Source of the DNA: Clostridiales bacterium DTU023
Lineage (GTDB): Bacteria > Bacillota > Clostridia > Saccharofermentanales > DTU023
Direction: 5' to 3'
DNA: 49,835 nt
NCBI GenBank assembly: GCA_001512945.1
Contig: LFTF01000018.1
Location: 1,417-51,251, forward strand
Position 1 is the stretch's first letter. Each line of letters opens with the position of its first letter. Shown here piece after piece: positions 34,488 to 49,246 of this stretch. The translations under genes were made by a program, and so were the position numbers. The notes under the pieces were generated by a model. The model ran no database searches and was not told the origin of the DNA. It saw nothing but the letters and a program-made list of their open reading frames with translations.

Positions 34488-34541
34488 GTTACTCCTTAAC
34501 AAGCCTCGCTATAAAAATGTGCGTCAAACGGCATCCTATCC

Positions 34542-35006
34542 TTAAAAAACAATTTCGCGTTTTACTTGAGCGATATCATCCCAGGAAAATAACATACGAT
34601 CTCCTGATTCCGTAATAACGCCCACAGTTTCATTTTCGACAACCAGTGAACCATAAAAACGTTTCACCCCGTCAATTCCACGGTACAAACTTATCCGTGC
34701 CCATTCACCTTCATGGCGAATGCAATCTTCAACCGTATTCAAGGGACGATCAAGACCGGGCGATGACACCTCAAACACGTCGAAGTCTTCAAACCCCAAC
34801 CCATCTGAAATCAACAGATCTGCTTTTTCACTCACGAGCTCACAATCCCCGATCCCAATGCCGCCTTTTTTATCTATAATCAGGCGCAATACTGTGCGTC
34901 CTCCCTCGTGGACATAGAGCACATCAAGTAAGGCAAGTCCATACGACTCTGCCACCGGAGCGATCAGCTCCATAATAACTTTTCTGTTTTCTTTGATCCC
35001 GCTCAT
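34542..35006 (-). CDS. rimP: Ribosome maturation factor RimP
   Basis: First gene of the nusA-infB operon. It has the typical RimP size and the LEVSSPGLDRPL-type motif (FEVSSPGLDRPL). Confidence 0.88.
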   Translation of the reverse strand: MSGIKENRKVIMELIAPVAESYGLALLDVLYVHEGGRTVLRLIIDKKGGIGIGDCELVSEKADLLISDGLGFEDFDVFEVSSPGLDRPLNTVEDCIRHEGEWARISLYRGIDGVKRFYGSLVVENETVGVITESGDRMLFSWDDIAQVKREIVF

Positions 35007-35041
35007 AAGAGGTAACCTCGATACCTAAAGTGCCCTACATC

Positions 35042-35069
35042 GAAAAGAGCGGGACTTCCCGCTCTTTTT
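35042..35069 (-). terminator. Promoter-proximal intrinsic terminator/attenuator in the rimP-nusA-infB leader
   Basis: Minus-strand AGAGCGGG-AAGU-CCCGCUCU forms an 8-bp stem followed by UUU. It lies 36 nt upstream of the rimP ATG and downstream of the consensus promoter at 35093-35120. A-tract and T-tract flanks make it potentially bidirectional. Confidence 0.55.
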
Positions 35070-35092
35070 GTGCAAAATTCGCCGTGAGTTCT

Positions 35093-35120
35093 ATTATATC
35101 AGGTTTTCGCATACGGTCAA
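35093..35120 (-). promoter_or_regulatory. Sigma-A-type promoter of the rimP-nusA-infB operon
   Basis: Minus strand reads cTTGACCgtatgcgaaaaccTGaTATAATag. That gives a -35 TTGACC, a 16-nt spacer, a perfect -10 TATAAT and a TGn extension. Confidence 0.65.
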
Positions 35121-35236
35121 GCTATGGAGACACTTAAACATCACTGCCAAATCAGATGCTGCACAAGATGAAATAACCTATTGCGATAACAATCATACCA
35201 CTCGATAAAGTCGTCGATGTTATCTCCGCTTTATTA

Positions 35237-35313
35237 TGGTGCACCATGACGGATTCGAACCGGCGGCCTTTCGCTTAGGAGGCGAATGCTCTATCCTGCT
35301 GAGCTAATGGTGC
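35237..35313 (-). tRNA. tRNA-Arg (anticodon CCT), CCA encoded
   Basis: Hand-folded sequence: GCACCAT-TA-GCTC-AGCAGGATA-GAGC-A-TTCGC-CTCCTAA-GCGAA-AGGCC-GCCGG-TTCGAAT-CCGTC-ATGGTGC-ACCA. The acceptor and anticodon stems are perfect. U33 and the T-loop TTCGAAT are present. There is one C-U mismatch in the T stem. Confidence 0.88.
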
Positions 35314-35346
35314 ATGAAGAGGATCAACAGCCTACGACAGTATAAC

Positions 35347-35380
35347 AAAAAAAACGGTCCCGGCAGATTGCCGGGACCGT
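35347..35380 (-). terminator. Rho-independent terminator after the uracil permease gene
   Basis: Minus-strand ACGGUCCCGGCA-AUC-UGCCGGGACCGU forms a perfect 12-bp stem followed by eight U. It lies 43 nt downstream of the permease stop. Confidence 0.85.
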
Positions 35381-35422
35381 TTGTTCGTTAAAAGATCAAA
35401 AGATCAGGTTATTAGCCTTCTC

Positions 35423-36772
35423 TTACTCTTCTTCAACCGGAGCTTCTTCGCCTACTTCATCCATAGAGAACACATAGTCTTTACCAGGAAGGATCGCGTT
35501 GACGATTATGCCGGCTAGCGCCGCAATGGCGAGACCGGACAATTGCACGGGCGCGTCACCGATCATGAATTTAAGGCCGCCAACGGCTTCAAATCCAAGT
35601 CCGGAAACAAGCGTGACTGCGACAATAATCAAGTTGCGCGTCTTCGTCAAGTCGACCCGATTTTCAACCATGTTGCGGACGCCAATGGCAGCAATCATCC
35701 CGTATAGGACGAACGACACACCACCGATGACAACACCAGGAATCGAGCCAATGAATCCGCCCACGATGGGGAAGAAACTTGCGATAATTGCCATGACCGC
35801 GGCAATTTGCATGACCCTTGGGTCGTAGACACGTGTCAGCACGAGAACACCTGTGTTCTCTCCGTACGTTGTGTTGGCAGGGCCACCAAAGGCTGACGCA
35901 AGGCTGGTCGCTATACCGTCACCAAGAAGTGTTCTGTGGAGACCGGGTTTGGCGATCAAGTTCTTGCCAATAGTCGCGCCGATGGCTGACACGTCGCCGA
36001 CGTGCTCCATCATAGTCGCGAGTGCGATAGGCACAATCGTTATGATCGCGCTCCCGTTAAATTTCATGAACCGATCCGCCGAGAGAGGCAGAGCGACAAC
36101 GCCGCCTGATGCCAATCCTGCGAAATCAACGACACCGAAGATAACCGCGACCACATAGCCGACAATGATTCCCAATAAGATGGGAATGATTTTCATCATG
36201 CCTTTGCCCCAGATATTGCAAACAACAATCGTCACAATCGCAGAGAGCGCAATCAGCCAGTTAACACCGAGCGGCAAAACACCTTTGGCCGTTTCGATTG
36301 GGCCCATGATGCTGCTGATAGCGACCGGGGCCAATATAAGACCGATGCAGACAATGATTGGACCTGTCACGACAGGTGGGAAGAAGCGCATAACGCGCTG
36401 GGGTCCGACAACCTTAATCAGACCTGCGAGAACCACATATACGAGACCGGCTACAAACACACCGCCGCAGGCGTACGGAAGCAGTTCCGGTTCTCCATTC
36501 GGGGCAATCGCCTGGTAACCTGCGATAAAGGCAAATGATGAGCCTAGGAAAGCAGGTACCTTACCTCCTGTGATTACGTGGAATAGTAGTGTACCAATAC
36601 CAGCCATCAAGAGTGCCGTCGAGACATTCAATCCGGTGATTATAGGAACAAGGATGGTGGCGCCAAACATAGCAAATAAATGCTGGACACCCAACACGAG
36701 AGTTTTTGGAACTCCCAGCTCTTTGACGTCATAGATGGGCTCGACGCCCAACTTAGATTTCTCTTTAGTCAT
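35423..36772 (-). CDS. uraA: Uracil permease (NCS2/NAT family, UraA/PyrP type)
   Basis: Close resemblance to remembered E. coli UraA signatures: LGVQHLFAMFGATILVP, FLGSSFAF, MEHVGD and NTTYGENTGVL. Start at ATG 36772 (GGAG 8 nt upstream) rather than 36805. Confidence 0.88.
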   Translation of the reverse strand: MTKEKSKLGVEPIYDVKELGVPKTLVLGVQHLFAMFGATILVPIITGLNVSTALLMAGIGTLLFHVITGGKVPAFLGSSFAFIAGYQAIAPNGEPELLPYACGGVFVAGLVYVVLAGLIKVVGPQRVMRFFPPVVTGPIIVCIGLILAPVAISSIMGPIETAKGVLPLGVNWLIALSAIVTIVVCNIWGKGMMKIIPILLGIIVGYVVAVIFGVVDFAGLASGGVVALPLSADRFMKFNGSAIITIVPIALATMMEHVGDVSAIGATIGKNLIAKPGLHRTLLGDGIATSLASAFGGPANTTYGENTGVLVLTRVYDPRVMQIAAVMAIIASFFPIVGGFIGSIPGVVIGGVSFVLYGMIAAIGVRNMVENRVDLTKTRNLIIVAVTLVSGLGFEAVGGLKFMIGDAPVQLSGLAIAALAGIIVNAILPGKDYVFSMDEVGEEAPVEEE

Positions 36773-37113
36773 TCGTTCATCTCCTCTCATAACAAGATTT
36801 CCCAAGCGTTGCGCAGTTGCCTCCGCTTCATATCAGAGACAGCCACCGCTGACGGGTACTTATTAATTACACAAATCGTACCACAAGTAACAGTTGATTG
36901 CATTAGCAGTTTCTACAGGATCAAGCCGGTAAGACGTTTGATTTCATCTCGAACATGCCCTATATGAGGGGTAATTGTTCATTCTATTTGGTGATTTGAC
37001 ACAACATTTAACAAAATCAAACGCAAATCTACGTTTTTATATTGTAAAAGACAATCACCGATCATATCGAATTAACCATGGCGCCCTTGCAAAAATTAAC
37101 TCCAACCCCACTC

Positions 37114-38052
37114 TCACCAAAAGCCGAACGATCGCAGGACCACAATAAAGATATGCAGCGTGAAAAGAGAAACAAACGAAGTAACGGCGACAATTTGAGC
37201 AGCAAGCTCACCGTCACCGCCAAGTTCAAATGCCATCGCGGGAAGCGGAGTCGCGACCGGACCGCCGAACGCGACAAGCAATGAGATTAGCGTAATATCG
37301 CGAAACCCAAAAAGAATGGCCAGAGGTACTAACAAAATCGGAACAATGAGCAGGCGGACTGTCGTGGCAATTGAGATCCATAACTTATTGGCTTTCAAAC
37401 CCAGGAATGTCAGAGAAGATCCGGCAACGATCAACGACAGAGGCTTCGCGGCCTCAGAGATTTGCTCGAGAGGACGATAAAGAATATCCGGAAGTGGGAC
37501 ACGTGTCAGTTGGAAAAACATCGCAAAAGAAACGGCGATGACAATCGGATTCTTGAGAACACTAAGCAAAATGGAACCCACATTTGGTTTTGTCCCCTTC
37601 ATCATCTCAAAAATGATGACGCTCAAAATATTGAATAGAGGAACCACTACTGCGATTAGGATACTAGCGGGACCTATTTTGTCGGCTCCAAAAAGAAGTG
37701 TTCCATAAATAATCCCCAATAAACCAAAATTAGTCCGGTAGGCGCATTGCGCGACAACAGACGCGACAGGACGCGATGGAATTTTTTTCGCGGCGACTAT
37801 GACCCCGACGCCCGCCAGCACCAAGACACATACCACAGAAAATAGTATTGCTTTGAGATCGATCGCTTCGGCAAGATTCGTATTGTATACGCTGACAAAT
37901 AAGGAGACCGATATAAAAACTACAAAAACAATCCTGTTAAGCGGCTGTTCGATTGATTTTGGGATGATCTTTGTTTTGCCAAGCAATGCGCCGGCAAGAA
38001 TAAAAAAATAAAGTGGGAAAAGACTCTCAAGTGTCTCTAGCAAAACAGCCAT
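37114..38052 (-). CDS. AEC-family (auxin efflux carrier / malate-malonate permease type) membrane transporter
   Basis: About 310 aa with ~10 TM helices. The N-terminus LFPLYFFILAGALLGKTKII is typical of the Mem_trans/AEC family. Confidence 0.75.
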   Translation of the reverse strand: MAVLLETLESLFPLYFFILAGALLGKTKIIPKSIEQPLNRIVFVVFISVSLFVSVYNTNLAEAIDLKAILFSVVCVLVLAGVGVIVAAKKIPSRPVASVVAQCAYRTNFGLLGIIYGTLLFGADKIGPASILIAVVVPLFNILSVIIFEMMKGTKPNVGSILLSVLKNPIVIAVSFAMFFQLTRVPLPDILYRPLEQISEAAKPLSLIVAGSSLTFLGLKANKLWISIATTVRLLIVPILLVPLAILFGFRDITLISLLVAFGGPVATPLPAMAFELGGDGELAAQIVAVTSFVSLFTLHIFIVVLRSFGFW

Positions 38053-38075
38053 GTACTGAGCCCCGAATCATTTTC

Positions 38076-38114
38076 AAAAACCCCCCGAAGCCGGTCAAAC
38101 CGACTTTCAGGGGG
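38076..38114 (-). terminator. Intrinsic terminator-like hairpin after the cyclase gene, only 24 nt upstream of the AEC start
   Basis: Minus-strand CCCCCUGAA...UUCGGGGGG forms a 9-bp outer stem including one G-U, with an inner CGGU/ACCG helix, followed by UUUUU. Confidence 0.6.
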
Positions 38115-38180
38115 TCTGGTTTACGTAAGAAAAACAATCAGCGTCCGTTCGGCGATATGCCTGGCGAGCGCTGACCAAAA

Positions 38181-38978
38181 TTAATCCTCTTCGTCAAACG
38201 CTACGCAGCGGCAGAACGCAGACTCACCATACTGGAACTTCCAGGGGAATGTTCCGAGGATGAGGCGCTTGTTCAGCACTTTGTCAATCTCACCGCCAAT
38301 ATTCTCGACGTGAATGATTTCCCAAGGTTTCGGGAAAACTTCAATGTGCATGGCCTGGTATGTATCGGGCCATTTGTAGATCTCATTCAGCCCTTTGCCG
38401 TATTTCTCCTTCAAGTAAGCGTCGCAGCGCTCAGCTTCTTGAGGTTCCCAGTCGCGGATCTTCGTGTTCATCGGGTGGTCGGCGGAACCGCAATCGACCG
38501 CGATGTACTTGATCTCCATCTCTTTCATCCAGTCAGGGAAATCCATCGACGGACCGGGATGGCGTAGCATGTAGCGCCGCTCATCGGCCTCCGGTTGGTC
38601 AAATCCATACTTATGGTAGCCCGTATTGATGAAGATGATGTCACCTTTTTTTACTTCAACGCGGTCCATGATGTCCTGCGGCGTGTAGATCGACCAGTCC
38701 TCCGCGATATCAGAGATATCGACGACGACGCCAGGTCCAACTAGTTTATCCATCTCGAGCGAAGCGATATCGCGACCAGATGTGTCAAAATGCAACGGGC
38801 CGTCAAGGTGAGTTCCCACGTGATTTGAGGTTGTTATGAGCATGCCGTTCGCGCCGTTCGGCGAGAGGCGCTTGAAAAATTTGACTTGCAATGGCTCGTA
38901 AGTCGGCCACGGCGGGGTCAAATGGCTTGTGTTCTGTGTAAGGTCGTAAACCTTCATTTTGTCCCAGTTTTTAATCAT
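38181..38978 (-). CDS. Cyclase-family metal-dependent amidohydrolase (kynurenine formamidase / isatin hydrolase-like)
   Basis: Family signature HxGTHxDxPxH is present as NHVGTHLDGPLHF, with downstream His/Asp/Glu ligand candidates (GSADHP, HIE). GGAGGG RBS. Confidence 0.82.
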   Translation of the reverse strand: MIKNWDKMKVYDLTQNTSHLTPPWPTYEPLQVKFFKRLSPNGANGMLITTSNHVGTHLDGPLHFDTSGRDIASLEMDKLVGPGVVVDISDIAEDWSIYTPQDIMDRVEVKKGDIIFINTGYHKYGFDQPEADERRYMLRHPGPSMDFPDWMKEMEIKYIAVDCGSADHPMNTKIRDWEPQEAERCDAYLKEKYGKGLNEIYKWPDTYQAMHIEVFPKPWEIIHVENIGGEIDKVLNKRLILGTFPWKFQYGESAFCRCVAFDEED

Positions 38979-39056
38979 GATTTCCCTCCATTTTTTTCTG
39001 ATTTATTCCATTGTATTCAGAGTCCGGTTTAACGGACAAAACTGACAGTTTATTCA

Positions 39057-39079
39057 TAGCCGTCCGTATTGGACGGCTA
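39057..39079 (-). promoter_or_regulatory. Perfect 9-bp stem-loop between the DUF1116 gene and the cyclase gene
   Basis: Minus-strand UAGCCGUCC-AAUAC-GGACGGCUA. No U tract follows. It may be an RNA stability/processing element or a weak terminator. Confidence 0.4.
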
Positions 39080-39096
39080 ATATCTATTATAGCGCA

Positions 39097-40356
39097 CTAA
39101 TCAAGGAGTCCCTCGTCGTCAAGAAGCTCGACATATGCCTCTAGCGCATCCTCAAAACAATTCATCGGCGGGTAAACAACTCCGGCTCCCACCTGGCCTA
39201 CGCCGGCGTCCTTGTGGGCAATGCCGGTGTTAATTACGGGTAGAATCTGCGTCTCAACGACTCGACGGATGTCGATCCCTGTCGGTGAACCGCGGAAATT
39301 CATGGGTGGCAATTTGTAGCTGTTGCTCTCCTCTAGCGTTATCTCATACATTCTCGTCGTGTAATTGACAGCATCCTGAGGTGTGCCGCCGACGAACTGA
39401 ACAATAGCGGGTGCCGTTGCCATGGAAAATCCACCGATGCCGAGTGTCTCCGTTATACATGAATCGCCGATGTCGGGATTGGCGTCGGCCATGCTGTAAC
39501 CGGGAAAGTAAAGCCCATCGATGATAGCCGCCGGACCGGTGAACCAGCGATCGCCCAGGCCTGCGACGCGGATGCCAAACTCAGTGCCGTTACGGCACAT
39601 CGTGTAGACAACGGTCGAATGCTTAACGCCGCCAGCCGGATCCAGTGAAGCTTTCGCCGCAGGCATTGAAAGGTTAAGGAAGAAGTGATCATTCGAGTTC
39701 ATAAAATCGAACACTTTGACCTGATCCTCTTTCGAAGAATTTGTCTTTAGGATGCTCGATGCGATCTCGCGGATAAATAGTGAAGTCGCCGCCTTATTTC
39801 GGTTGTGGACTTCGTCTCCCATTTGAACCGCTTGGGCGATCATATTCTTAAGGTCGATGGGACCGTGAATTTCAATCGCTTCTTTCATGATGGGATAGAG
39901 CGTTTTCTCCATCCATTTGAGGTGCGTGATGACCTGATCGCTGAATGCGCCAAAACGCAATACCGTTCCCAGTCCCTCGTTCTGTGTACAGTAAGATTTG
40001 TTGCCGTATGTTTTATTTTCCAGAATAAAGACAGGCATGGACGCCGTGACGACACCAGCCATGGGACCGACCGCCGAATGATGGTGACACGGATCAAATT
40101 CAATGTCGCCCGAGGCGGCAAGCTTCTCTGCTTCCTCCGGTGTTGAGGCAAGTCCTTCGTAAATCAACCCGCCGATAACTGCGCCGCGAAGCGGTCCCGA
40201 CATTTTCTCCCATGTAATGGGAGGGCCTGCGTGCAACATCATATGTTTATGCATGCCCGGCACGACATCCTTCGCCACTCCCATCCCGATCAGTGTCGGC
40301 TGGGCGCTCTGTATGATCTCCAATACTTTCTTATTGGCTTCTTCAATGAAATCCAT
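39097..40356 (-). CDS. ylbE: DUF1116 protein, homologue of E. coli YlbE (AllG-type subunit)
   Basis: Same length (419 aa) as full-length E. coli YlbE as I remember it, with long collinear matches: LHAGPP, CHHHSAVGPMAGV, NEGLG.VLRFGA, FFLNLSM, NPD(I/M)GDS.ITET.GIGG, GIDIRRVVET...INTGIAHK.AG.GQ.GAG. Confidence 0.85.
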   Translation of the reverse strand: MDFIEEANKKVLEIIQSAQPTLIGMGVAKDVVPGMHKHMMLHAGPPITWEKMSGPLRGAVIGGLIYEGLASTPEEAEKLAASGDIEFDPCHHHSAVGPMAGVVTASMPVFILENKTYGNKSYCTQNEGLGTVLRFGAFSDQVITHLKWMEKTLYPIMKEAIEIHGPIDLKNMIAQAVQMGDEVHNRNKAATSLFIREIASSILKTNSSKEDQVKVFDFMNSNDHFFLNLSMPAAKASLDPAGGVKHSTVVYTMCRNGTEFGIRVAGLGDRWFTGPAAIIDGLYFPGYSMADANPDIGDSCITETLGIGGFSMATAPAIVQFVGGTPQDAVNYTTRMYEITLEESNSYKLPPMNFRGSPTGIDIRRVVETQILPVINTGIAHKDAGVGQVGAGVVYPPMNCFEDALEAYVELLDDEGLLD

Positions 40357-40451
40357 GATTCCCCTTCTTTCTTACATCTTGATTCTGTATATGTTCTATC
40401 TATTACAAACCATCATCCTCTAATGGGTAAGGGTTTGTCGCGACCTTGTGT

Positions 40452-40628
40452 TTACTTCGAGCTCTTCAACTTGCCAAGCAAAGAAGCCATCTTGCGGTTG
40501 CCCCCCGCAAAAGGTTTCCATTGGACGTGAATACTCGGAATGTCTTGTGCTTTGAGTTCTGTGTAGAAAGACTCAAGACCAATGTTAATGATTTTCAGAT
40601 CTTCTTTAAAAAGTTCATTGACTGACAT
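40452..40628 (-). CDS. 58-aa protein corresponding to the C-terminal tail of E. coli FdrA (separately encoded)
   Basis: Below the ORF-track size cutoff. ATG at 40628 is preceded by GGAAGGAG at 6 nt, 13 nt after the fdrA stop and in a different frame. Translation: MSVNELFKEDLKIINIGLESFYTELKAQDIPSIHVQWKPFAGGNRKMASLLGKLKSSK. It matches the remembered E. coli FdrA C-terminus ...VAVINIGLRSFALELQSASKPVVHYQWSPVAGGNKKLARLLERLQ. Confidence 0.65.
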   Translation of the reverse strand: MSVNELFKEDLKIINIGLESFYTELKAQDIPSIHVQWKPFAGGNRKMASLLGKLKSSK

Positions 40629-40641
40629 GATATGCTCCTTC

Positions 40642-42195
40642 CTATAAACCAGCTGTTTTCATGATACGGTCGACGAGGCGAACTGCCTGTGCATTCGAAG
40701 GCATCACAATCACGCCTGCTTGTTCCAAGTCTTCGATTGATTGTTTTAGGTCTTGCGGATCTTTATCGGTTCCCGTCACCGAAGCGACAGCTACGATATC
40801 TCTGCCCATGCTGGCAAGTTTTTCGCGGATTTTTATGACAGAATCCGCGACAGCCCCGGCAGGATCTTCGTGCGATCCGTAACCTAAAACGACGTCGACC
40901 AGGATGACCGCGGTCGTTTCATCGATATGTGATTCGAAAAATTCAGTGCGCGTCATCGGGTCAATCATCGGGTGTGGACGTCCACGAGTGAACTCATCCT
41001 CTCCGAGATCGAGACAAAGATGTCCCGCAAGACCTTCGAGTTTTGCCAGAGCACGATCTGGTGTCAGCGGGATATTCGAGTAGATCGGATAGTGTTCGCC
41101 CAGATACTTGATGGCCTCATCAGCCAGCGTACCGCCTGTAAAGAGGGCGCGAAGGTATTTCTGCTCCGGGGCGAGCCGCCCAGCCGCATCGTCAACTACA
41201 TGCGCGATCTCTTGCTCAGAGGCGTCAAATCCATCGAAATCGACTGGCGTCTGCTTGCGAAGGAGCGCGACAGCTTTCTTTGCGGCATCTTCCAAGCTCA
41301 CACACGGTACCGCGCCTGCCCGAAGAACTGATTCGGCGTTGCCGCCGATGAAGTCTATGACAACAGGTTTTGGTGAATCCGCCACAAGATCATAAATTTT
41401 CTTTTCAACAGATGGCGCGGGGGGTTTTGAAATGAGAAGGATGACGTGTGTCTCCGGGTCAGCTAATAGCGCCTCGATGCCTTGAATCATCATTAGACCA
41501 CCGATTTCTTCTCGAAGATCGCGTCCTCCTGTTCCGATTACTTGAGACAGTCCCTCGCCCAGCTGATCTATTAGAACCGTGACCTCTTGCGTGCCTGTAC
41601 CAGACGCGCCTACCACTCCGATTTTTCCACGCTTGACAACGTTGGCAAAACAAAGCGGAACGCCGTTAATAATCGCTGTCCCGCAGTCGGGTCCCATCAT
41701 AAGCAATCCCTTGTCGACCGCCATGCGCTTGAGTTTCAACTCATCTTCAATGGACACGTTGTCCGAAAACATCATGACGTTAAGCCCCTCACGCAAAGCA
41801 TTTTCCGCCTCGTCCGCGGCATATTGACCCGGCACTGAGAGCACTACGAAATTGGCTCCCGGCAAATACTCAATGGCTGAGCGCAATGTCGGCGGCTGAT
41901 AATCGCCCGCGTGGGATTCCTTCTTCTTGTTAATCTGCTCATCGAACGATGCAATAAGCTCGTCCATGTTTACTCGGCTTTCATCAAACTTCGCGGCAAT
42001 AAAAAGGTCATTGGGAGTAACCTTCTCAAGCTCAGGCAAAAACATTTCGAGCATCTTCACCAGATCGAGGTTCAGGTCCGTACCCATTCCAACCAGTACT
42101 TCCTCAACACCGTCGAGTTTCTTCATCTCACGCGAGATGAGCATCAGTGTGACTGAATCAAAATAGGCATTCTCACGTACAATAGTGTCAATCAT
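40642..42195 (-). CDS. fdrA: FdrA-like protein (succinyl-CoA-synthetase-alpha-like fold; AllF-type subunit), lacking the usual C-terminal tail
   Basis: Collinear with remembered E. coli FdrA: FDSV.LM.ISR, LNVMMFSDNV..EDE..LK, GLLMMGPDCGT, G.IGV.GASGTG.QE, GGRDL, SKPP, GRPHPMIDP. Start at ATG 42195 (MIDTIV; AAGGAG 8 nt upstream) rather than GTG 42204. Confidence 0.88.
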   Translation of the reverse strand: MIDTIVRENAYFDSVTLMLISREMKKLDGVEEVLVGMGTDLNLDLVKMLEMFLPELEKVTPNDLFIAAKFDESRVNMDELIASFDEQINKKKESHAGDYQPPTLRSAIEYLPGANFVVLSVPGQYAADEAENALREGLNVMMFSDNVSIEDELKLKRMAVDKGLLMMGPDCGTAIINGVPLCFANVVKRGKIGVVGASGTGTQEVTVLIDQLGEGLSQVIGTGGRDLREEIGGLMMIQGIEALLADPETHVILLISKPPAPSVEKKIYDLVADSPKPVVIDFIGGNAESVLRAGAVPCVSLEDAAKKAVALLRKQTPVDFDGFDASEQEIAHVVDDAAGRLAPEQKYLRALFTGGTLADEAIKYLGEHYPIYSNIPLTPDRALAKLEGLAGHLCLDLGEDEFTRGRPHPMIDPMTRTEFFESHIDETTAVILVDVVLGYGSHEDPAGAVADSVIKIREKLASMGRDIVAVASVTGTDKDPQDLKQSIEDLEQAGVIVMPSNAQAVRLVDRIMKTAGL

Positions 42196-42232
42196 TCCTC
42201 TCACTCCTTAACTAAATTTTACTTAAAATCAC

Positions 42233-43192
42233 TTATTCCGAATCACTCCGGGATGTTCTTATATTATCGGCCGATATCTTTCGGGCGCAATACAATCCAA
42301 ACAGGAAGTCTGCCCCCGAAGACGAGCCGTAAGCCAGTACACGCTCGATGAGCGAGTCAAGCGCATCAAGATCGTCTTCTACGATCGCGCGAAGCAATTC
42401 AAGATACGCTTCATTGGCCCTTCCACTCGCCGCATGGCGCAACATATGGTAGCTGACCAGCGTCGTACGATCACGGGCTATCACAGCAACACGCTCCAAA
42501 TTTTCGCGCAACCCATTGTTTGCGTCATTGCCCCAAGGACTGTCATAAAACAGACTTAACAGGATTCCTGCAAGAAAATCATCACAAGAGGGAGTAAGCC
42601 CGGGACCAAAGCCGATCAGCCTCTCTGTAAGATCGAGCGCGTGCTCTGGCTTGTCGGATACGAGCACTTTTAAAAACAGCTCAAGATCACGGTAAATGAA
42701 AGTGCAATAGACGTTCCCCTTGCGGGTGGAAGGAGGCGTATCACCCTCCGGCATCCACGCGATCAGCGGTGAAATTCCGTCTGCATTGGCAAGCAATAAT
42801 TTTGTTTTGATCAAGTCAAGTGCCATGATGCCTGGACTACATTTGACTTGCAATGGTTGTGTGAGAGAAACAGGGCGGACATGAGCATCCTTGAGCCAAA
42901 TCGAGCCTGCTCCGCGAGGCAGGTTAAACACCAATCTGCCATCGCTTGACAGGGTGTCTCCGGCTCGCAAGCCCCACACACTGACACCGGGAACCGCCGC
43001 AACCATACCCATCGGCATGATATCGCGCCCAGACGAAGCAAACGTCACCAGTTCCTCCTCCTGTGTCAACAGGTTAACCGACGTCTCAAAGACAGAATGT
43101 ACGCGGAGCTCGAGAATGGGACGCGCCAGCAAGAACTGCCGAAGATCCGACGCAATAAACAAACCGTTATAGATTTTTTCGCGTACCGTCAT
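42233..43192 (-). CDS. ylbF: DUF2877 protein, homologue of E. coli YlbF (AllH-type subunit)
   Basis: The C-terminal half matches remembered YlbF motifs: GFGPGLTPSCDD (E. coli GKGPGLTPSHDD) and AYGSSSGADFLFG (E. coli ALGHTSGADTLLG). Its ATG overlaps the pucR stop (ATGA). Confidence 0.78.
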   Translation of the reverse strand: MTVREKIYNGLFIASDLRQFLLARPILELRVHSVFETSVNLLTQEEELVTFASSGRDIMPMGMVAAVPGVSVWGLRAGDTLSSDGRLVFNLPRGAGSIWLKDAHVRPVSLTQPLQVKCSPGIMALDLIKTKLLLANADGISPLIAWMPEGDTPPSTRKGNVYCTFIYRDLELFLKVLVSDKPEHALDLTERLIGFGPGLTPSCDDFLAGILLSLFYDSPWGNDANNGLRENLERVAVIARDRTTLVSYHMLRHAASGRANEAYLELLRAIVEDDLDALDSLIERVLAYGSSSGADFLFGLYCARKISADNIRTSRSDSE

Positions 43193-44874
43193 TGGATCAA
43201 CTCCCTGATTTTCAAGGCGAGCTGGAAATTGAATGCCGTTTCAGGGTCGCGAAGATCGATCCCGTAAATATCGCGAATGCGGTTGATCCTGTAAATAATT
43301 GTATTGTAATGCGTAAACAGAACTTCCGACACTCGCTTAAGATTACCTCCCGAAGCAAAGTAAACGCGGACTGTCTCAAGCAAATCACCTCGCTGCTTGC
43401 TGTCGTACTCTTCAATTGAACTCAAAATCTCTTCTGCGTATGCCAACGCGTCGTCCCGAAGCAACGGATGTCCCAAAACACGCAGCAGGCCGAGATCGTC
43501 GAAGAACAGCACAGATGCATCTGTTTCACCACGACTTTGAAGTATTCGAACTGTCTGCTCCGCTTGCTGAAGACTTGTCGGCAAATAACGGTATGAACGA
43601 ACACAAGAACCAACTCCTATGTAGGTATAGTGGAGCGCTTCTTTTTCCTCAATGCATTTCAAAACAATCTCTATGAAACGTTTGCACAAAGCGTGACGTC
43701 CTTCAAGCGGGCAATCGCTTTCAAACTGTAAAAGAAAGACGGCGCGATCGCTCTTTCTCGTCACGAGGAAATAACCCTCATAGTCTCTTTTTATAAGATT
43801 GGTCAGATTAAGCAGACTGGTGTTCAGATTTTTGATCATTCGAGAATTGTTGGGCGTCATTTGGAGATGCTGTTCATGATCCATGACAAGCACCACAATC
43901 TGGCTGGGCAGATCGGGATGAAAAAGATAATAGTCGGCACTTTCTATAGCTTTACTTTGTTCGCGCGGATCATCATTTAAGAGTTGCTCCAGAAAAGTTG
44001 TTTGATGAACATTTTCACGCTCGATAAGCGCAGTTCTGTTCAAAATGTCGAGCGCTATCAGGGAGGAAGTCGACTCAATGACAAAAAGATCCTGAGGACG
44101 CAAAGAACCATCCGTGTCCCACAAATAAATACTTCCGTAATGCATGTTGTCGAAATATATCGGGAGAGTAAACCGCCTTACTCCATTCTCCCCGATGGAT
44201 ACTTCCTGACTTCTATTCTTTGCCAAACGGTGATCGAGACGTGCAAAGTCTGCTGCCTCAAGGGCACGGTAATCATGCTCAATCAAACTTGCCTTATCTT
44301 GATCGGGACAGTAAAAATGAGAATCCCTAAATATGTCGTCACGGATGACGACAGGTGTTTGTGTCGCCAGATAAATCTGTTCGGCGATAGCCTGCATACC
44401 TTCATGTCTGAGCATAATTTCACGGACTGTGTGATTGAACTCGTTGATCCGGCTCAACAGACGCGTCTGCTCACCGATAATGTGGTTGAAGATTTCCTTG
44501 ATCAGCTCGCCGTATGGAACGTTTTGTGGAATTCTTATAATTGGAAAGTCGAGATCGTCCGCAAGATGAATAACACTTTCAGGTACTTCACTGATATAAC
44601 GTTGTGTTTTAATCCCCATCCCGCACACATTCTTCGACCGGAGTTGAGGGATCAGTCGCTCGAACGCGACGATATCATCACTAAATATATAGGCAGTTGT
44701 CAGCAGAAACTCCCCAGGTCTCACCCAATCGATAATATCAGGGACCTCCATGACATTGACCGACATAATACTGTTGTCTAGGCCTTTGCGACCCGCCAGC
44801 ACTTCCGCCTCCTGCAATAATCCCACTTGCAAGATGTCACGCAACTGAATTGTAAGTTTTTTTTGGTCTGACAT
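43189..44874 (-). CDS. pucR: PucR-family transcriptional regulator (purine catabolism regulator-like N-domain + C-terminal HTH)
   Basis: PucR-type N-terminus (LRDILQVGLLQEAEVLAGRKGLDNSIMSVNVMEVPDIIDWVRPGEFLLTTAY) and C-terminal HTH (LKRVSEVLFTHYNTIIYRINRIRDIYG). AGAGGA RBS. First gene of the minus-strand operon. Confidence 0.85.
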   Translation of the reverse strand: MSDQKKLTIQLRDILQVGLLQEAEVLAGRKGLDNSIMSVNVMEVPDIIDWVRPGEFLLTTAYIFSDDIVAFERLIPQLRSKNVCGMGIKTQRYISEVPESVIHLADDLDFPIIRIPQNVPYGELIKEIFNHIIGEQTRLLSRINEFNHTVREIMLRHEGMQAIAEQIYLATQTPVVIRDDIFRDSHFYCPDQDKASLIEHDYRALEAADFARLDHRLAKNRSQEVSIGENGVRRFTLPIYFDNMHYGSIYLWDTDGSLRPQDLFVIESTSSLIALDILNRTALIERENVHQTTFLEQLLNDDPREQSKAIESADYYLFHPDLPSQIVVLVMDHEQHLQMTPNNSRMIKNLNTSLLNLTNLIKRDYEGYFLVTRKSDRAVFLLQFESDCPLEGRHALCKRFIEIVLKCIEEKEALHYTYIGVGSCVRSYRYLPTSLQQAEQTVRILQSRGETDASVLFFDDLGLLRVLGHPLLRDDALAYAEEILSSIEEYDSKQRGDLLETVRVYFASGGNLKRVSEVLFTHYNTIIYRINRIRDIYGIDLRDPETAFNFQLALKIRELIQ

Positions 44875-44889
44875 CTATGTTGTCCTCTT

Positions 44890-44901
44890 ACAATCTATTT
44901 T
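44890..44901 (-). promoter_or_regulatory. Copy 1 of the shared 12-mer AAAATAGATTGT (in the pucR leader, abutting the SD)
   Basis: Plus strand acaatctatttt reads on the minus strand as AAAATAGATTGTaagaggacaacatagATG. Confidence 0.45.
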
Positions 44902-45227
44902 ACACAAATTCACAAACTGATTAATTAGCTGCTAGTAACAGCGATGTAATCATTGTACGTGATATCGATGTAATAATGTTACAGGAGCTTTCATCATGCT
45001 TGCAATTTTATTGCCATATTGGCAAAAACTGCATTTGTTTTGCTTTTTCCGCATGATCGAGCACTGTCACACATTAACAAACTAACAAAAGACTATTTGA
45101 CAGGGAGCAGATTAGCCAAACGTCTTTATTGCGTCATTAAAGATACTTTTTTGTATATGTTTATCAATATATCGTTTGAACCGTAAACTATTTTGTAAGT
45201 GATTACAACGAATTTCGCTTACATAAG

Positions 45228-45236
45228 TGATAGAAT
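45228..45236 (+). promoter_or_regulatory. Candidate extended -10 promoter element (TGATAGAAT) for the Mo-hydroxylase operon
   Basis: TGnTAGAAT lies 98 nt upstream of the GTG start. There is no good -35 at 16-18 nt, so this is tentative. Confidence 0.3.
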
Positions 45237-45247
45237 TGTATTAATTA

Positions 45248-45274
45248 TGCACAGCACCCTAATCGTGCTGTGCA
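45248..45274 (+). promoter_or_regulatory. Perfect 10-bp inverted repeat TGCACAGCAC-N7-GTGCTGTGCA upstream of the Mo-hydroxylase operon
   Basis: Seen directly in the sequence. It lies 60 nt upstream of the GTG start and no T tract follows. It could be a dimeric-regulator operator or a 5'-UTR hairpin. Confidence 0.45.
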
Positions 45275-45297
45275 GTTGAACAAAGTACCTATCTGCA

Positions 45298-45309
45298 AAA
45301 ATAGATTGT
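45298..45309 (+). promoter_or_regulatory. Copy 2 of the shared 12-mer AAAATAGATTGT (in the Mo-hydroxylase leader)
   Basis: Plus strand reads aAAAATAGATTGTtttgctgaaaaAAGGAGGtttttcGTG. It has the same orientation relative to its gene as copy 1. Confidence 0.45.
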
Positions 45310-45333
45310 TTTGCTGAAAAAAGGAGGTTTTTC

Positions 45334-46185
45334 GTGCTAAGTCAATTTGATTATGTCAAACCGCTTGTATTGGACGAAGCCCTGGATGTGTTGTCCCGCG
45401 ATACGGACACGTACATTCTGGCCGGCGGTACAGATCTTCTGATTATGCTACGCCATGAGCTGATCAACGCCCGCCATATCCTAGACATCAAGGCCATCCC
45501 TGAATTGAAGGTCTTTTCGTATGTTGAAGGTAAGGGACTGGAGATCGGCGCAAACGTCGTCGTCAACAAGCTCATCGAATCCGAGGTTGTCAGGGATAAT
45601 TACAAGGCGCTGCATGACGCGGCGTCCTGTCTCGCTTCCTACCAGCTTAGAAATCGGGCCACGCTCGTTGGAAACATTTGCAATGCTTCTCCCGGGGCAG
45701 ATCTTCCGCCCGCGCTTTTGATCTACAATGCGACCGTAAAGATCGCGAGCAAAGATGGCGTTAGGACAGTGCCGCTCAAGGAATTTTTTACGGGAGTCAA
45801 GAAGACCCAGCTCACAAAACATGAACTCGTTGTCTCCGTATTCCTTCCCGAACCAGGTCAAGACGATGACAGTTGCTATCTGCGGCAGACGCGCCTCAAG
45901 GGACACGACCTTTCAACAGTCGGTGTGGCCTGCCGTATCGATAAAAACGGGAAAGCTTGCATCGGTATCAACGCCGTTGCCATCACTCCGCTTCGCTTGA
46001 CAGCTCTGGAAGATGAACTGAACGCCAAGGGAATCACGGAGGAATCCATCCTATGGGCAGCTGACGAAATCAAAAACCACATCCGTCCCATATCTGATGT
46101 ACGTTCTTCGAAAGAATACCGGTTGCACATGGCGGGCGTTCTATTCAAGCGCTGCATGATGCAATTGATGGACAAGGAGGCATAA
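45334..46185 (+). CDS. Molybdenum hydroxylase FAD-binding (medium) subunit, CoxM/XdhB-like
   Basis: FAD_binding_5-type N-terminus (FDYVKPLVLDEALDVL...ILAGGTDLL), RNRATLVGNICNASPGAD, and a CO-dehydrogenase flavoprotein C-domain. GTG start with AAGGAGG 6 nt upstream. Confidence 0.9.
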   Translation: MLSQFDYVKPLVLDEALDVLSRDTDTYILAGGTDLLIMLRHELINARHILDIKAIPELKVFSYVEGKGLEIGANVVVNKLIESEVVRDNYKALHDAASCLASYQLRNRATLVGNICNASPGADLPPALLIYNATVKIASKDGVRTVPLKEFFTGVKKTQLTKHELVVSVFLPEPGQDDDSCYLRQTRLKGHDLSTVGVACRIDKNGKACIGINAVAITPLRLTALEDELNAKGITEESILWAADEIKNHIRPISDVRSSKEYRLHMAGVLFKRCMMQLMDKEA

Positions 46186-46188
46186 GAC

Positions 46189-46737
46189 ATGACTAACATA
46201 GATGATAAAGACATGTGCGCCATGGAAGCGGCGCATATCAATTCAAAAAACCGGCAAGTCCTTCTGACTTGCAGAGTCAACGGACAGGTTGTGGTCGAAG
46301 AAATCGATCCCACGATGTTACTTCTCCATTTCCTTCGCGACAGGCTCAAGCTGTTCGGCGCCAAGGAAGCGTGTGGAGAGGGAGAATGCGGTGCCTGCAC
46401 CGTCATCCTCAACGGCGAAGCCGTTACGTCTTGTCTTATCCTGGCCATTGAGGCCCAGGGCAGCGAGATTACTACTGTCGAAGGTTTATCCAAGAACGGT
46501 GAACTCAGCATCCTCCAACAGCAGTTCGTTTTCGAGGACGCCCTGCAGTGCGGGTTCTGCACGCCTGGTATGCTGATGTCGGCACGCGCGCTCCTTGACC
46601 GCAATCCTGATCCCACAGACGAAGAGATTATGGAAGGAATGGCGGGTAACCTCTGCCGTTGCACCGGTTATCAACAGATTTTTAATGCAGTCAAATGTGC
46701 TGCTAGATTAGAGAGAGAGGAGTTGAACCGTTCATGA
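46189..46737 (+). CDS. Molybdenum hydroxylase 2x[2Fe-2S] (small) subunit, CoxS/XdhC-like
   Basis: Both cluster motifs are present: CGEGECGACTV...C and CGFCTPGM...CRCTGY. AAGGAGG RBS. Confidence 0.93.
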   Translation: MTNIDDKDMCAMEAAHINSKNRQVLLTCRVNGQVVVEEIDPTMLLLHFLRDRLKLFGAKEACGEGECGACTVILNGEAVTSCLILAIEAQGSEITTVEGLSKNGELSILQQQFVFEDALQCGFCTPGMLMSARALLDRNPDPTDEEIMEGMAGNLCRCTGYQQIFNAVKCAARLEREELNRS

Positions 46738-49145
46738 CTCATTCTGAATTAGATCAGTGCACATATCAGGCACATGGCAATTACGAGTCATCTTACAAAC
46801 ATGTCGGCCAGCCGTATGTTCGAAAAGATGCCCTTGAAAAAGTAACAGGCCAGGCACGTTATGCGTTTGACCTCGAGATGCCCGGTATGCTTTATGCCAA
46901 AACACTGCATTCGCCGCATGCCAGAGCAAAGATTGTTAGGATCGATAAGAGCAAAGCAGAGGCGCTATTAGGTGTCAAAGCCGTCGTGTGCGGAGAAGAC
47001 TGCGACACGCGAGTTGGTCTGTACATGCAGGACAAGCTCGCAATCGCAACGTGCGAAACGCGCTACCAGGGAGAAGTCGTTGCGGCCGTTGCGGCCACAA
47101 CAGAGGCAATCGCCGAGCGCGCCGTTTCCTTGATCGAAGTCGAGTACGAAGTACTTGAACCTGTCCGGAATCTGGACGATGCGCTAGCTGCCAAAATCCT
47201 CGTTCACGAGAACATCGCCGAAATCAAGCACGTTGAGGGTGTCTTTTTCCCGCAACCGGAATCCAACATCGCAAGCCTCAACAGAAGTCTAAAGGGTGAT
47301 CCGGATGCCGGTTTCGCAGATGCAGACCTTGTCCTTGAGAACAAGTTCACACTACCTGCCGTCGCGCACGTTCCTCTTGAAACGCATGTGGCGATCGTCG
47401 CGGCCGACCCATTCACCGATCGCATCCGTATCTGGTCGTCAGCGCAGTCACCCTTTGCTTTGCGGCAATTGATGGCGTGGAGCTTTAACGTTAAGGAATC
47501 CGACATTGAGGTTCATGTCCCCTACGTCGGTGGCGCTTTCGGCGGTAAGGCCGGTATCCATCTCGAACCACTGATTGCGATACTCTCGCGCGCCAGCGGC
47601 GGCGCTCCCGTCAAGCTTCGCATGACGCGTGAACAGGAATTCAACTACCTGCCAACACGTGCCGGCATGAGAGGCAAAATAAAGACGGGTGTCAAAAAAG
47701 ATGGCACGATCGTCGCATCAGATATCGTCTACGACTGGGACAGCGGTGCGTATGCGGACTACGGCGTCAACGTAGGTAAGACAGCTGTTTACGGAGGTCT
47801 AGGCCCCTACGACATCGACAACGCAGCGATCGTATCGAACACGGTTTACACGAACAAAGTGTTCAGTACCGCTTACCGCGGTTTCGGTCACCTTGAAACC
47901 TTGTGGACAGTTGAACGTCAGATGGACATTCTGTCACAGAAACTCGGCATCGATCCCTATGAATTCCGCATGAAAAATATCCTGCGTCCCGGTGCCACAA
48001 CCATTTCCGGCGAGCTTGTCACTGAAAGTACAGGCAGTCCTTCCGATTGTCTCTCGGCCGTCGTTAAAGAGATTGGTTGGACGGGACGCAAAAGCGAAGA
48101 AGATCGTAAACGTGAGTGGAAAACAGGCAAAATACGGGGCAAAGGATTTGCCATGATCCAGAAAGCGCCCGCGATGCCACCCAGCACAGCGACAGCAGTT
48201 ATTTTGCAAATGGCGGGTGACGGTCACATCAAGATGATGATAGGCGCGATCGATTACGGGCAAGGCGCCCTTACGGCGATGGCTCAAATAGTCGCGCAGG
48301 AACTCGATATCCCGATGGAGATGGTCGAAGTCGTCACAGAGACCAATACACAGACGAACCCATACGATTGGAACACGGTCGCCTCGAAGTATACCTTCAT
48401 GGGCGGCAACGCAACGATCCAGGCATGCGGCAAAATGCTTGACCAGATGAAAGACATCGCCGGTCAGGCACTGCACTGCGCACCTGAATTCTTGACACAC
48501 GGCGGTGGTTACATCTACAACGTGCATCGCCCCGACCGCAGGGTTGCGTACAAGGATATGTCGCTTGGATACGCGTACCCCGATGGCAATGGCATAGGAG
48601 GACCGCTTATTGCTCACGGCATCTGCATGGCAGACGGTCTGACCAACCTGGATCCCAAAACAGGCGCAGGAAGTCCGGCGCTTGCCTGGACGTTCGGCGC
48701 ACATGCTGTCGATATCGAAGTCGATGTCGAGTCTGGCAACATTACTGTTTTGAAAGTTGCCTCGGCATTTGACATCGGTCAAGTCATCAACGAGCGAATG
48801 GTTTATGGACAGGTTGTGGGCGGCGTAATGCAGGGCATCGGCTCTGCCATCCTCGAAGGATATAAATTTAGCCCTGATAACGTCCTTATGAACCCGTCAT
48901 TTACAGACAACAAGATTCCGACGATGAAGGACATGCCGGTTGAGGTCGTCCCGATCTATATCGAGAACCCACAGCTGAATGGCCCCTATGGAGCCCGAGG
49001 TGTGGCGGAGCATACGATGATTTCGATCCCGTCGGCCATCGGAAACGCGCTCTATGACGCGCTTGGAATCAATTACTACCATCTACCTCTCACACCTGAG
49101 AACGTCGCGCTCGGCATTATCAGTGGAGAAAAAGATATTTATTAA
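46734..49145 (+). CDS. Molybdenum hydroxylase molybdopterin-binding (large) subunit, xanthine-oxidase family, substrate unknown
   Basis: a/b-hammerhead N-domain (VRKDALEKVTGQARYAFD), VGGAFGGKAG, AYRGFGH, and the C-terminal catalytic-Glu motif ARGVAEH. Its ATGA overlaps the small-subunit stop. Confidence 0.92.
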   Translation: MTHSELDQCTYQAHGNYESSYKHVGQPYVRKDALEKVTGQARYAFDLEMPGMLYAKTLHSPHARAKIVRIDKSKAEALLGVKAVVCGEDCDTRVGLYMQDKLAIATCETRYQGEVVAAVAATTEAIAERAVSLIEVEYEVLEPVRNLDDALAAKILVHENIAEIKHVEGVFFPQPESNIASLNRSLKGDPDAGFADADLVLENKFTLPAVAHVPLETHVAIVAADPFTDRIRIWSSAQSPFALRQLMAWSFNVKESDIEVHVPYVGGAFGGKAGIHLEPLIAILSRASGGAPVKLRMTREQEFNYLPTRAGMRGKIKTGVKKDGTIVASDIVYDWDSGAYADYGVNVGKTAVYGGLGPYDIDNAAIVSNTVYTNKVFSTAYRGFGHLETLWTVERQMDILSQKLGIDPYEFRMKNILRPGATTISGELVTESTGSPSDCLSAVVKEIGWTGRKSEEDRKREWKTGKIRGKGFAMIQKAPAMPPSTATAVILQMAGDGHIKMMIGAIDYGQGALTAMAQIVAQELDIPMEMVEVVTETNTQTNPYDWNTVASKYTFMGGNATIQACGKMLDQMKDIAGQALHCAPEFLTHGGGYIYNVHRPDRRVAYKDMSLGYAYPDGNGIGGPLIAHGICMADGLTNLDPKTGAGSPALAWTFGAHAVDIEVDVESGNITVLKVASAFDIGQVINERMVYGQVVGGVMQGIGSAILEGYKFSPDNVLMNPSFTDNKIPTMKDMPVEVVPIYIENPQLNGPYGARGVAEHTMISIPSAIGNALYDALGINYYHLPLTPENVALGIISGEKDIY

Positions 49146-49199
49146 AACTTCGTGTCGTTGATCCCACAATCAAAACGGGATCAGATGTAATACTGATTA

Positions 49200-49246
49200 C
49201 AGATCCGCTGCTGATTTTCAAAGATCAGTAGCGGATCTGCTTTTTA
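49200..49246 (+). terminator. Rho-independent terminator of the Mo-hydroxylase operon
   Basis: CAGATCCGCTGCTGAT-tttcaaag-ATCAGTAGCGGATCTG forms a 16-bp stem with one G-U. After a single C it is followed by TTTTT. A smaller hairpin at 49159-49183 precedes it. Confidence 0.85.

Follow-up and report, generated by a model that had tools for sequence, protein, structure and literature searches.

The oxidative degradation of uracil and thymine has been known since the 1950s and is regarded as rare and aerobic, and we know of no gene assigned to its first enzyme. Here, we describe a gene cluster in a 49,835-nucleotide stretch of DNA from Clostridiales bacterium DTU023 (GenBank assembly GCA_001512945.1, contig LFTF01000018.1, positions 1,417 to 51,251 of the forward strand), termed the window, that may hold the upstream half of an anaerobic counterpart of this pathway. 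In the classical Rhodococcus/Mycobacterium-type route, uracil is converted via barbiturate and ureidomalonate (malonurate) to malonate and urea; C6 hydroxylation by a uracil/thymine dehydrogenase is followed by ring opening by a barbiturase of the AtzD/Bar type and by the action of a hydrolytic, urea-yielding ureidomalonase (PMC3758960). An overview of pyrimidine degradation published in 2025 lists oxidative, reductive, Rut and URC routes only (PMC12507026).

The second system of relevance is the E. coli AllFGH enzyme, which operates with the carbamate kinase AllK in anaerobic allantoin degradation. The purified complex was shown biochemically to be an oxalurate/oxamate transcarbamylase that does not require CoA, and oxalurate is its proven substrate (PMC11326118). 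Ureidomalonate is the CH2 homologue of oxalurate. In the full-text literature, accounts of AllFGH concern oxalurate in E. coli alone, and those of oxidative pyrimidine degradation name no ring-opening and ureide-cleaving enzymes other than an AtzD-type barbiturase and a hydrolytic ureidomalonase. No description of the cluster reported here was found in that literature, the coverage of which leaves most subscription journals outside.

Results

The window mainly carries housekeeping genes (a dcw/ftsZ cluster and rimP-nusA-infB), and the metabolic cluster starts at 35.4 kb. Its minus-strand genes form one tightly packed operon in the order PucR regulator, AllH, AllF/FdrA, a 58-codon open reading frame (ORF), AllG, cyclase, AEC carrier and NCS2 permease. 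The genes for the FAD, 2Fe-2S and molybdenum (Mo) subunits of a hydroxylase form an operon on the plus strand, divergent from the PucR/AllFGH operon. A sequence-only reading of positions 35,423 to 43,192 had proposed that an N-acyl-urea other than oxalurate is phosphorolysed here. All the genes that it named were present with strong family matches, as was the hydroxylase of 803, 283 and 182 residues that it invoked, which lies at 45,334–49,145, outside those positions and inside the window. We assign a probability of roughly 0.55 to the reading that these genes belong to an anaerobic oxidative catabolic supercluster for uracil, and probably also for thymine, of which the window holds the upstream half. 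Gene context and homology underlie every step, which sets the figure at this level.

In the proposed pathway, a UraA-type permease would import uracil or thymine, and the three-subunit Mo/FeS/FAD hydroxylase would hydroxylate C6 to give barbiturate. The ring would be opened to ureidomalonate by the cyclase-family enzyme, standing in for the unrelated AtzD/Bar-type barbiturase. The enzyme composed of AllH, AllF, the 58-residue tail and AllG would then cleave ureidomalonate with phosphate to carbamoyl phosphate and malonamate, taking the place of the hydrolytic ureidomalonase. An amidase encoded outside the window would release malonate and NH3 from malonamate, an MdcA-like transferase would convert malonate to malonyl-CoA or a thioester equivalent, and a biotin-dependent, Na+-pumping decarboxylase of the MmdA/OAD-beta type would yield acetyl-CoA and CO2 (propionyl-CoA from thymine). 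Energy would be gained twice, through ATP formed from carbamoyl phosphate by a carbamate kinase (no gene for which lies in the window) and through a gradient of Na+.

AllF, AllG and AllH are encoded together, as in the AllFGH oxamic transcarbamylase, according to Pfam and NCBIfam matches. The AllG-like subunit of this carbamoyltransferase/phosphorylase-type enzyme (39,097–40,356, minus strand; DUF1116, PF06545, 336 bits) is 45% identical to E. coli AllG. The AllF/FdrA-like subunit (40,642–42,204, minus strand), which has the CoA_binding and Ligase_CoA fold by Pfam and scored 503 bits on the NCBIfam FdrA subfamily model (cut-off 433), is 38% identical to E. coli AllF and retains the motif GRPHPMIDP. 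The AllH-like subunit (42,233–43,192, minus strand; DUF2877, PF11392, 90 bits) is 36% identical to E. coli AllH over the C-terminal 119 residues. The 58-codon ORF (40,452–40,628, minus strand) is homologous to residues 509–555 of E. coli AllF (51% identity, E value of 2e-16) and is kept in most related loci. Judged by this homology and conservation, it is a real gene; its product corresponds to the C-terminal tail of AllF, encoded separately, and would link AllF to AllG.

The tail domain stands free here, forms the C terminus of AllF in E. coli, precedes AllG at the N terminus of proteins of ∼473 residues and lies inside AllF-tail-AllG fusions of ∼1000 residues; the fused forms were seen among proteins P0241, P0243, P0251, P0259, P0306 and P0360. 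Because the same segment occurs fused to the AllG N terminus or within AllF-tail-AllG proteins, the 58-residue protein is predicted to be a mobile linker domain that is integral to the AllF/AllG enzyme. The earlier description of a trio of subunits needs amending, as AllF is split and the enzyme is encoded by four genes.

The AllG family comprised 715 representatives (50% clustering, E value ≤1e-30). Splitting it by identity to the E. coli or the window protein, attempted with 150 representatives, gave a continuum that was uninformative by itself and was rejected. In a midpoint-rooted neighbor-joining tree of 160 AllG domains, the smallest clade with all 53 cyclase-linked AllG proteins had 85 tips and left E. 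coli AllG outside, although this tree is weak evidence because it carries no bootstrap values.

The fold of AllF raises a different interpretation, in which the FdrA-like complex would be an ADP-forming enzyme of the acyl-CoA synthetase type that activates malonate or malonamate, the ureido group being hydrolysed off by the cyclase or the amidase. The CoA_binding and Ligase_CoA domains of AllF and the NCBIfam subfamily name "acyl-CoA synthetase FdrA" speak for such an activity. Against it, the E. coli complex, once purified, acted as a transcarbamylase without a need for CoA (PMC11326118), and the clusters have CoA-transferase genes of their own. Some clusters also include carbamate kinase genes, and no urease genes were seen. 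We regard an acyl-CoA synthetase role as highly improbable.

The identities to the three E. coli subunits would also suit a genuine oxamic transcarbamylase that converts oxalurate to oxamate and carbamoyl phosphate, and no substrate of AllFGH other than oxalurate has been proven (PMC11326118). In that case, the Mo hydroxylase and cyclase would make oxalurate, starting from a five-membered ureide (hydantoin, parabanate-type) or a purine product. The roles of oxamate amidase and oxalate CoA-transferase would fall to the amide hydrolase and the CoA-transferase, and the malonate operon would be an unrelated neighbor. Membership of the regulator in the PucR family is in keeping with such a function, as is the score of the Alkaliphilus CoA-transferase on the oxalate CoA-transferase model (369 bits, below the cut-off of 522). 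The gene neighborhoods described below argue for ureidomalonate as the substrate, and we consider a true oxalurate pathway to be quite unlikely.

The hydroxylase is encoded on the plus strand by genes for an FAD subunit (45,334–46,185; 283 residues; FAD_binding_5 171 bits, CO_deh_flav_C 62 bits), a subunit with two [2Fe-2S] clusters (46,189–46,737; 182 residues; Fer2_2 110 bits, Fer2 29 bits) and a molybdopterin subunit (46,734–49,145; 803 residues; MoCoBD_1, MoCoBD_2 and Ald_Xan_dh_C domains), the last being the proposed uracil/thymine C6-hydroxylase. The Mo subunit reached no NCBIfam equivalog, the best being XdhA at 457 bits against a cut-off of 780, and its closest relative in the PDB is 4-hydroxybenzoyl-CoA reductase. 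In bovine xanthine dehydrogenase (XDH), we take the relevant residues to be Glu802 (purine-binding), Arg880 and Glu1261 (catalytic). The Glu802 equivalent is replaced by Ala in the Mo subunit (GGAFGGK-A, not K-E), and the equivalents of Arg880 and Glu1261 are retained. The motifs GGxFGGKAG, xRGFG and GARGxxEH are common to 33 cluster-linked Mo subunits, down to 36% identity. Given that the signature Glu is absent and that the XdhA, PucD and XdhB equivalog scores were not reached, the hydroxylase is predicted to be a distinct subfamily and not a canonical (purine) XDH.

A second, CoxL-like Mo lineage (GGGFGPKI / YRGAGR / GAGEAG) was found in the cluster of some Anaerolineales (L067, L068, L069, L071 and L075; also L074 and L085), where it looks like a non-orthologous replacement of the hydroxylase.

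The substrate of the Mo subunit is not readable from its sequence, and the same logic of hydroxylation, ring opening and ureide phosphorolysis could serve another N-heterocycle, uracil then not being the physiological substrate. Candidates would be a purine opened in its pyrimidine ring (xanthine to ureidoimidazole carboxylate), a substituted or amino-pyrimidine, or a triazine-like compound. The CoxL-like substitution in Anaerolineales fits such a scheme, as do an AtzC/cytosine-deaminase-like gene in 5 loci, a second permease that falls in a generic purine/pyrimidine group and a module of a 232-residue protein, thiolase and DUF35 protein in ∼17 loci. Set against these are the malonate/malonyl-CoA modules, which need a C3 dicarboxylate such as would arise from pyrimidine C4-C5-C6, and the uracil-binding motifs of UraA retained by the first permease; furthermore, genes of the clostridial xanthine and urate pathways are not among the conserved neighbors. 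Another heterocycle is, on this evidence, an unlikely physiological substrate.

The cyclase-family metal amidohydrolase (38,181–38,978, minus strand; PF04199, 115 bits) is the proposed barbiturase analogue that would convert barbiturate to ureidomalonate. Its metal motif, HxGTHxDxPxH, is intact, and its relatives in the PDB are kynurenine formamidase and isatin hydrolase. The Pfam family and the motif are shared with KynB and with isatin hydrolase, which also opens a cyclic amide. By contrast with these enzymes, the cyclase forms a subfamily of its own, syntenic with allG and the Mo hydroxylase, and it scored far below the KynB equivalog (53 bits against 223). The cyclase gene lies on the allG strand in 59 of the 70 loci with enough downstream sequence, and in 43 it is found ≤300 nucleotides downstream of allG. 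No match to a barbiturase of the AtzD/Bar family was obtained among the Pfam-scanned proteins, namely those of the large window ORFs at 4,131–49,145, of the genes beyond the window end and of representatives of families 9, 10, 13, 15, 17 and 23 from related loci; the cyclase-family hydrolase takes that position.

At locus L111, the cyclase gene forms a unit of four with the FAD, FeS and Mo genes, and the 10-kb flanks contain no AllFGH; this arrangement suggests that the cyclase is functionally tied to the hydroxylase product. A tandem double-cyclase fusion of about 545–569 residues occurs in loci of Caldisericota, the PVC group and some Spirochaetota (L066, L076, L078 and L082), and no AllF was detected beside AllG in L078 and L082.

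The first permease, of the NCS2 family and UraA type (35,423–36,805, minus strand; Xan_ur_permease PF00860, 311 bits), is the proposed uracil/thymine importer. It is 40% identical to E. coli UraA and retains SSFAF, EHVG and YGENxG together with the equivalents of E241 and E290, the substrate-binding glutamates of UraA. The NCBIfam uracil permease model gave the highest score (330 bits, cut-off 477), followed by RutG (267) and pbuX (222), none of them reaching its cut-off. On these features the protein is UraA-like, as the sequence-only reading had maintained. A second NCS2 permease of 440 residues begins at 49,422 on the plus strand and is cut by the window end, so that its N-terminal 138 codons lie in the window (49,422–49,835; NCBIfam NCS2_1 purine/pyrimidine permease, 128 bits, cut-off 40). 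The auxin efflux carrier (AEC) family (Mem_trans) protein (37,114–38,052, minus strand; Pfam 70 bits; NCBIfam auxin-efflux-carrier model 43 bits, below cut-off) had been advanced as a pathway component on the model of a malonate carrier. It was detected only in Saccharofermentanales/Mageeibacillus-like loci and is not part of the conserved core, so that this element of the earlier proposal was not supported.

To follow the locus past the window end, it was read on contigs with an identical Mo subunit, namely L001, L002 and L086 (anaerobic-digester metagenome-assembled genome [MAG] GCA_012510955.1, labelled Clostridiaceae/Saccharofermentanales). About 3 kb past the window end is a malonate operon that is 99–100% identical in all three. 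The second permease is followed by a biotin-protein ligase gene, a LysR regulator gene and then six genes separated by gaps of 9–35 nucleotides, which encode an MdcA-like transferase, an MmdA-type carboxyltransferase, OAD-gamma, a biotin carrier (BCCP), the beta subunit of a Na+-pump decarboxylase and, as the last gene, an amidase-signature amidase. The MdcA-like malonate transferase (563 residues) scored 786.6 bits on TIGR01110, just under the cut-off of 789.15; the MmdA-type carboxyltransferase scored 858 bits, and the beta subunit 475 bits against a cut-off of 190. The entire arrangement is retained in L088, a different species (76–82% amino acid identity).

This operon shares the MdcA-like alpha subunit, MmdA-type carboxyltransferase, biotin carrier, OAD-gamma and OAD-beta with the Na+-translocating MmdABCD and the Mdc/Mad systems. 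It is unlike the Mdc/Mad decarboxylases in that an amidase is its last gene and in that acyl carrier protein (ACP) and MdcB/G/H genes are missing, for which reason a canonical malonate decarboxylase (Mdc/Mad) was rejected. Because these components are absent, the operon probably encodes a malonate CoA-transferase and a Na+-translocating malonyl-CoA decarboxylase, a CoA-based hybrid. As annotated, it would supply exactly the downstream chemistry needed by the malonurate proposal, from malonamate through malonate to acetyl-CoA and CO2.

Related observations were made at other loci. In the Mageeibacillus-like clade, a gene for a biotin-protein ligase and/or the biotin transporter BioY adjoins the cluster (L007, L009, L010, L014, L017, L020 and L054), which fits the biotin need of the neighboring decarboxylase. 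In L091, an amidase homologue (64% identical) is followed by MdcA-like and acetyl-CoA-synthetase-like genes among neighbors for a short-chain fatty acid transporter, a histidinol-dehydrogenase-like protein and a short-chain dehydrogenase/reductase; the amidase-MdcA pairing thus occurs outside the pyrimidine-type cluster as well. In L092, an amidase homologue (57% identical) adjoins a carbamate kinase gene.

A scan with AllG of one genome per GTDB species gave 80 loci at 52–86% identity. The hosts were Saccharofermentanales/Mageeibacillus-like Bacillota, Sporomusaceae, Spirochaetota, Anaerolineae, Acetomicrobium, Caldisericota, the PVC group and a few Actinomycetota. The module AllH-AllF-58-residue tail-AllG-cyclase, usually with the Mo/FeS/FAD hydroxylase and a UraA-type permease, was found in Bacillota, Spirochaetota, Chloroflexota, Synergistota and Caldisericota. 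Among the 34 loci with full 10-kb flanks, a cyclase was present in 30, AllF in 31, the Mo subunit in 29, the FAD and FeS subunits in 28 each and a UraA-like homologue of the first permease in 25. The allantoin genes allB, allC, allD and allE occurred in none of the 80 loci. Clustering of neighboring ORFs recovered a family-III CoA-transferase in 17 loci, an amidase-signature amidase in 14, an MmdA-type carboxyltransferase in 13 and OAD-beta in 8, as well as the biotin carrier. Amidase, family-III CoA-transferase and carboxyltransferase/BCCP/OAD-beta genes occur together in Spirochaetota and Chloroflexota (L025, L032, L072, L071 and L067).

The order of genes at individual loci illustrates this linkage. 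In Spirochaetales L040, XdhC and two carbamate kinases are followed by FeS, Mo, AllH, AllF, tail, AllG, cyclase, amidase, CoA-transferase and UraA; L039 has the same order, with the FAD subunit detected too. The two carbamate kinase genes, which differ from each other, stand side by side within the cluster in both loci, and L037 is similar. In Spirochaetota L025, the order is OAD-beta, BCCP, carboxyltransferase, UraA, AllH, AllF, tail, AllG, four unassigned genes, cyclase, CoA-transferase and amidase. In L032, cyclase, CoA-transferase and amidase come directly after AllF-tail-AllG, with carboxyltransferase and OAD-beta further downstream. Anaerolineae L072 has OAD-beta, carboxyltransferase, FAD, FeS, amidase, AllF, tail, AllG, cyclase, a cytosine-deaminase/AtzC-like gene (a family represented in 5 loci), AllH, UraA and CoA-transferase.

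A search based on the cyclase led to the complete genome of Alkaliphilus metalliredigens QYMF (80% identity), the cluster of which (CP000724.1, 722,111–742,914) comprises FAD, FeS, Mo, permease, PucR, AllH, AllF, a 56-residue protein, AllG, cyclase, a CN-hydrolase and a family-III CoA-transferase. A Thermoanaerobacteraceae MAG has the same core and the CN-hydrolase. The cultured carriers of the cluster are A. metalliredigens QYMF and Anaerospora hongkongensis DSM 15969 (Sporomusaceae).

Across these lineages, the core consists of the hydroxylase, the cyclase and the AllFGH-like enzyme, and the amide hydrolase, dicarboxylate CoA-transferase and biotin decarboxylase are drawn from non-orthologous genes in each lineage (MdcA versus family-III CoA-transferase; amidase-signature versus CN-hydrolase). 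Recurrence of the downstream functions with non-orthologous parts is a pattern typical of a conserved pathway. These neighborhoods bear directly on the oxalurate alternative introduced above. The linkage to decarboxylase genes is repeated independently in at least three phyla, MdcA-like and MmdA-type proteins act on malonate and (methyl)malonyl-CoA, and decarboxylation of oxalyl-CoA is not known to depend on biotin. In addition, allB to allE are lacking throughout, the amidase ends the malonate operon and the permease is of the UraA type.

A conserved protein of 232 residues was present in 17 loci, often followed by thiolase and DUF35/ChsH2-OB protein genes, and occupies the place of the amidase and CoA-transferase. 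Its gene comes directly after that of the cyclase in most of L044, L051, L055, L057, L060, L064 and L070; in L078 and L082 it lies across the hydroxylase genes on the opposite strand. The protein has an invariant HT...HELGG and gave no match in Pfam and none in the PDB, even with a profile. Two tandem AllF-tail-AllG-cyclase sets occur in L070 and may serve different substrates, for instance uracil in one case and thymine in the other. The additional PucR, AllF and cyclase ORFs of L053 are neighboring pieces that together make up the length of single genes, and thus look like split or frameshifted genes and not second copies.

With respect to regulation, the PucR-family regulator (43,189–44,874, minus strand; PucR, GGDEF_2 and HTH_30 domains) is the first gene of the minus-strand operon, overlaps allH by 4 nucleotides and is kept at the same position in Bacillota loci. 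The divergent promoter region between the regulator/AllFGH and hydroxylase operons (44,875–45,333, no strand assigned) contains a tandem 24-nucleotide repeat at 44,935–44,982 (GTAACAGCGATGTAATCATTGTAC / GTGATATCGATGTAATAATGTTAC) that may be an operator for the PucR-type regulator. A promoter scan gave sites no more frequent than in shuffled sequence. A strong intrinsic terminator with a 14-bp stem and a T-run (35,352–35,382, minus strand) ends the minus-strand operon after the permease, and a second intrinsic terminator (49,200–49,239, plus strand) follows the Mo subunit. A scan of 34,500–49,835 with Rfam for a riboswitch or other ligand-indicating RNA returned tRNA only. The gene for tRNA-Arg(CCT) (35,237–35,313, minus strand) lies between the cluster terminator and rimP-nusA-infB, a flank that is also present in related MAGs (L009, L014, L018, L021 and L054).

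Discussion

The enzyme described here resembles E. coli AllFGH (PMC11326118) in its homologous subunits, in the AllF tail and in the proposed phosphorolysis of an N-acyl-urea to carbamoyl phosphate and a primary amide. An allK-like carbamate kinase gene is clustered with it in a few relatives, although there is none in the window. It is unlike the E. coli system in that AllF is split, with a free 58-residue tail and the gene order allH-allF-tail-allG, and in that its relatives are joined to a cyclase (59 of 70 loci), and usually to a Mo hydroxylase and UraA-type permease, rather than to allB, allC, allD or allE. Its substrate is proposed to be ureidomalonate, with the resulting amide metabolized further rather than excreted. 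The first step, C6 hydroxylation, and the proposed intermediates are those of the Rhodococcus/Mycobacterium-type oxidative pathway (PMC3758960). In place of the enzymes of that aerobic route, a cyclase and a phosphorolytic AllFGH-type enzyme with an amidase are proposed; the hosts are anaerobes, and malonate would be coupled to a Na+-pumping decarboxylase.

The central claim of the sequence-only reading, an N-acyl-urea derived from a pyrimidine and leading to malonate chemistry, gains strong independent support from the malonate operon, the recurrence of the cluster across phyla, the lack of allantoin genes, the carbamate kinase genes clustered in some relatives and a Mo subunit without the XDH Glu. 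The proposed substrate itself is a prediction from genomic data. The further claim of an energy-conserving route would require a carbamate kinase, and none is encoded in the window.

Several points weigh against a pyrimidine pathway as set out here. The only characterized AllFGH uses oxalurate. Neither the window nor the 22 kb surrounding the locus contains a carbamate kinase gene. The candidate uracil/thymine dehydrogenase was placed by comparison with XDH, NCBIfam models and PDB entries. The roles of the cyclase and the amidase could be the reverse of those proposed. The amidase was rejected as an orthologue of malonamidase MAE2, given that its closest relative in the PDB was a peptide amidase (E value of 4.8e-84, against ∼3e-24 for MAE2). 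Neither the malonate operon nor the 4.7 kb upstream of it holds a gene for an ACP (MdcC/MadE) or for MdcB, MdcG or MdcH, and the genes upstream of the MdcA-like gene are unrelated. Finally, no more than about one-third of the loci have a malonate-type module within 10 kb, and another third or so carry the module of the 232-residue protein, thiolase and DUF35 protein instead.

With the cluster present in two organisms that are in culture and have been sequenced, the hypothesis of oxidative pyrimidine catabolism is open to direct test. In its broadest form, for which we see even odds, the cluster would represent a widespread and unrecognized anaerobic pyrimidine fermentation. This would provide the first uracil/thymine dehydrogenase genes, a new, non-homologous class of barbiturase from the cyclase family and a second AllFGH specificity (a "malonamate transcarbamylase" or ureidomalonate phosphorylase); each uracil would yield energy at two points, and the AllFGH family would be one of N-acyl-urea phosphorylases of several substrates. 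If this is correct, many anaerobes of digesters, sediments and soda lakes would degrade uracil and thymine by an energy-conserving oxidative route. Three of its steps would be catalyzed by enzymes that are unrelated to the known ones or of different specificity, and a physiological role beyond oxalurate cleavage would be added for the recently solved AllFGH enzyme.

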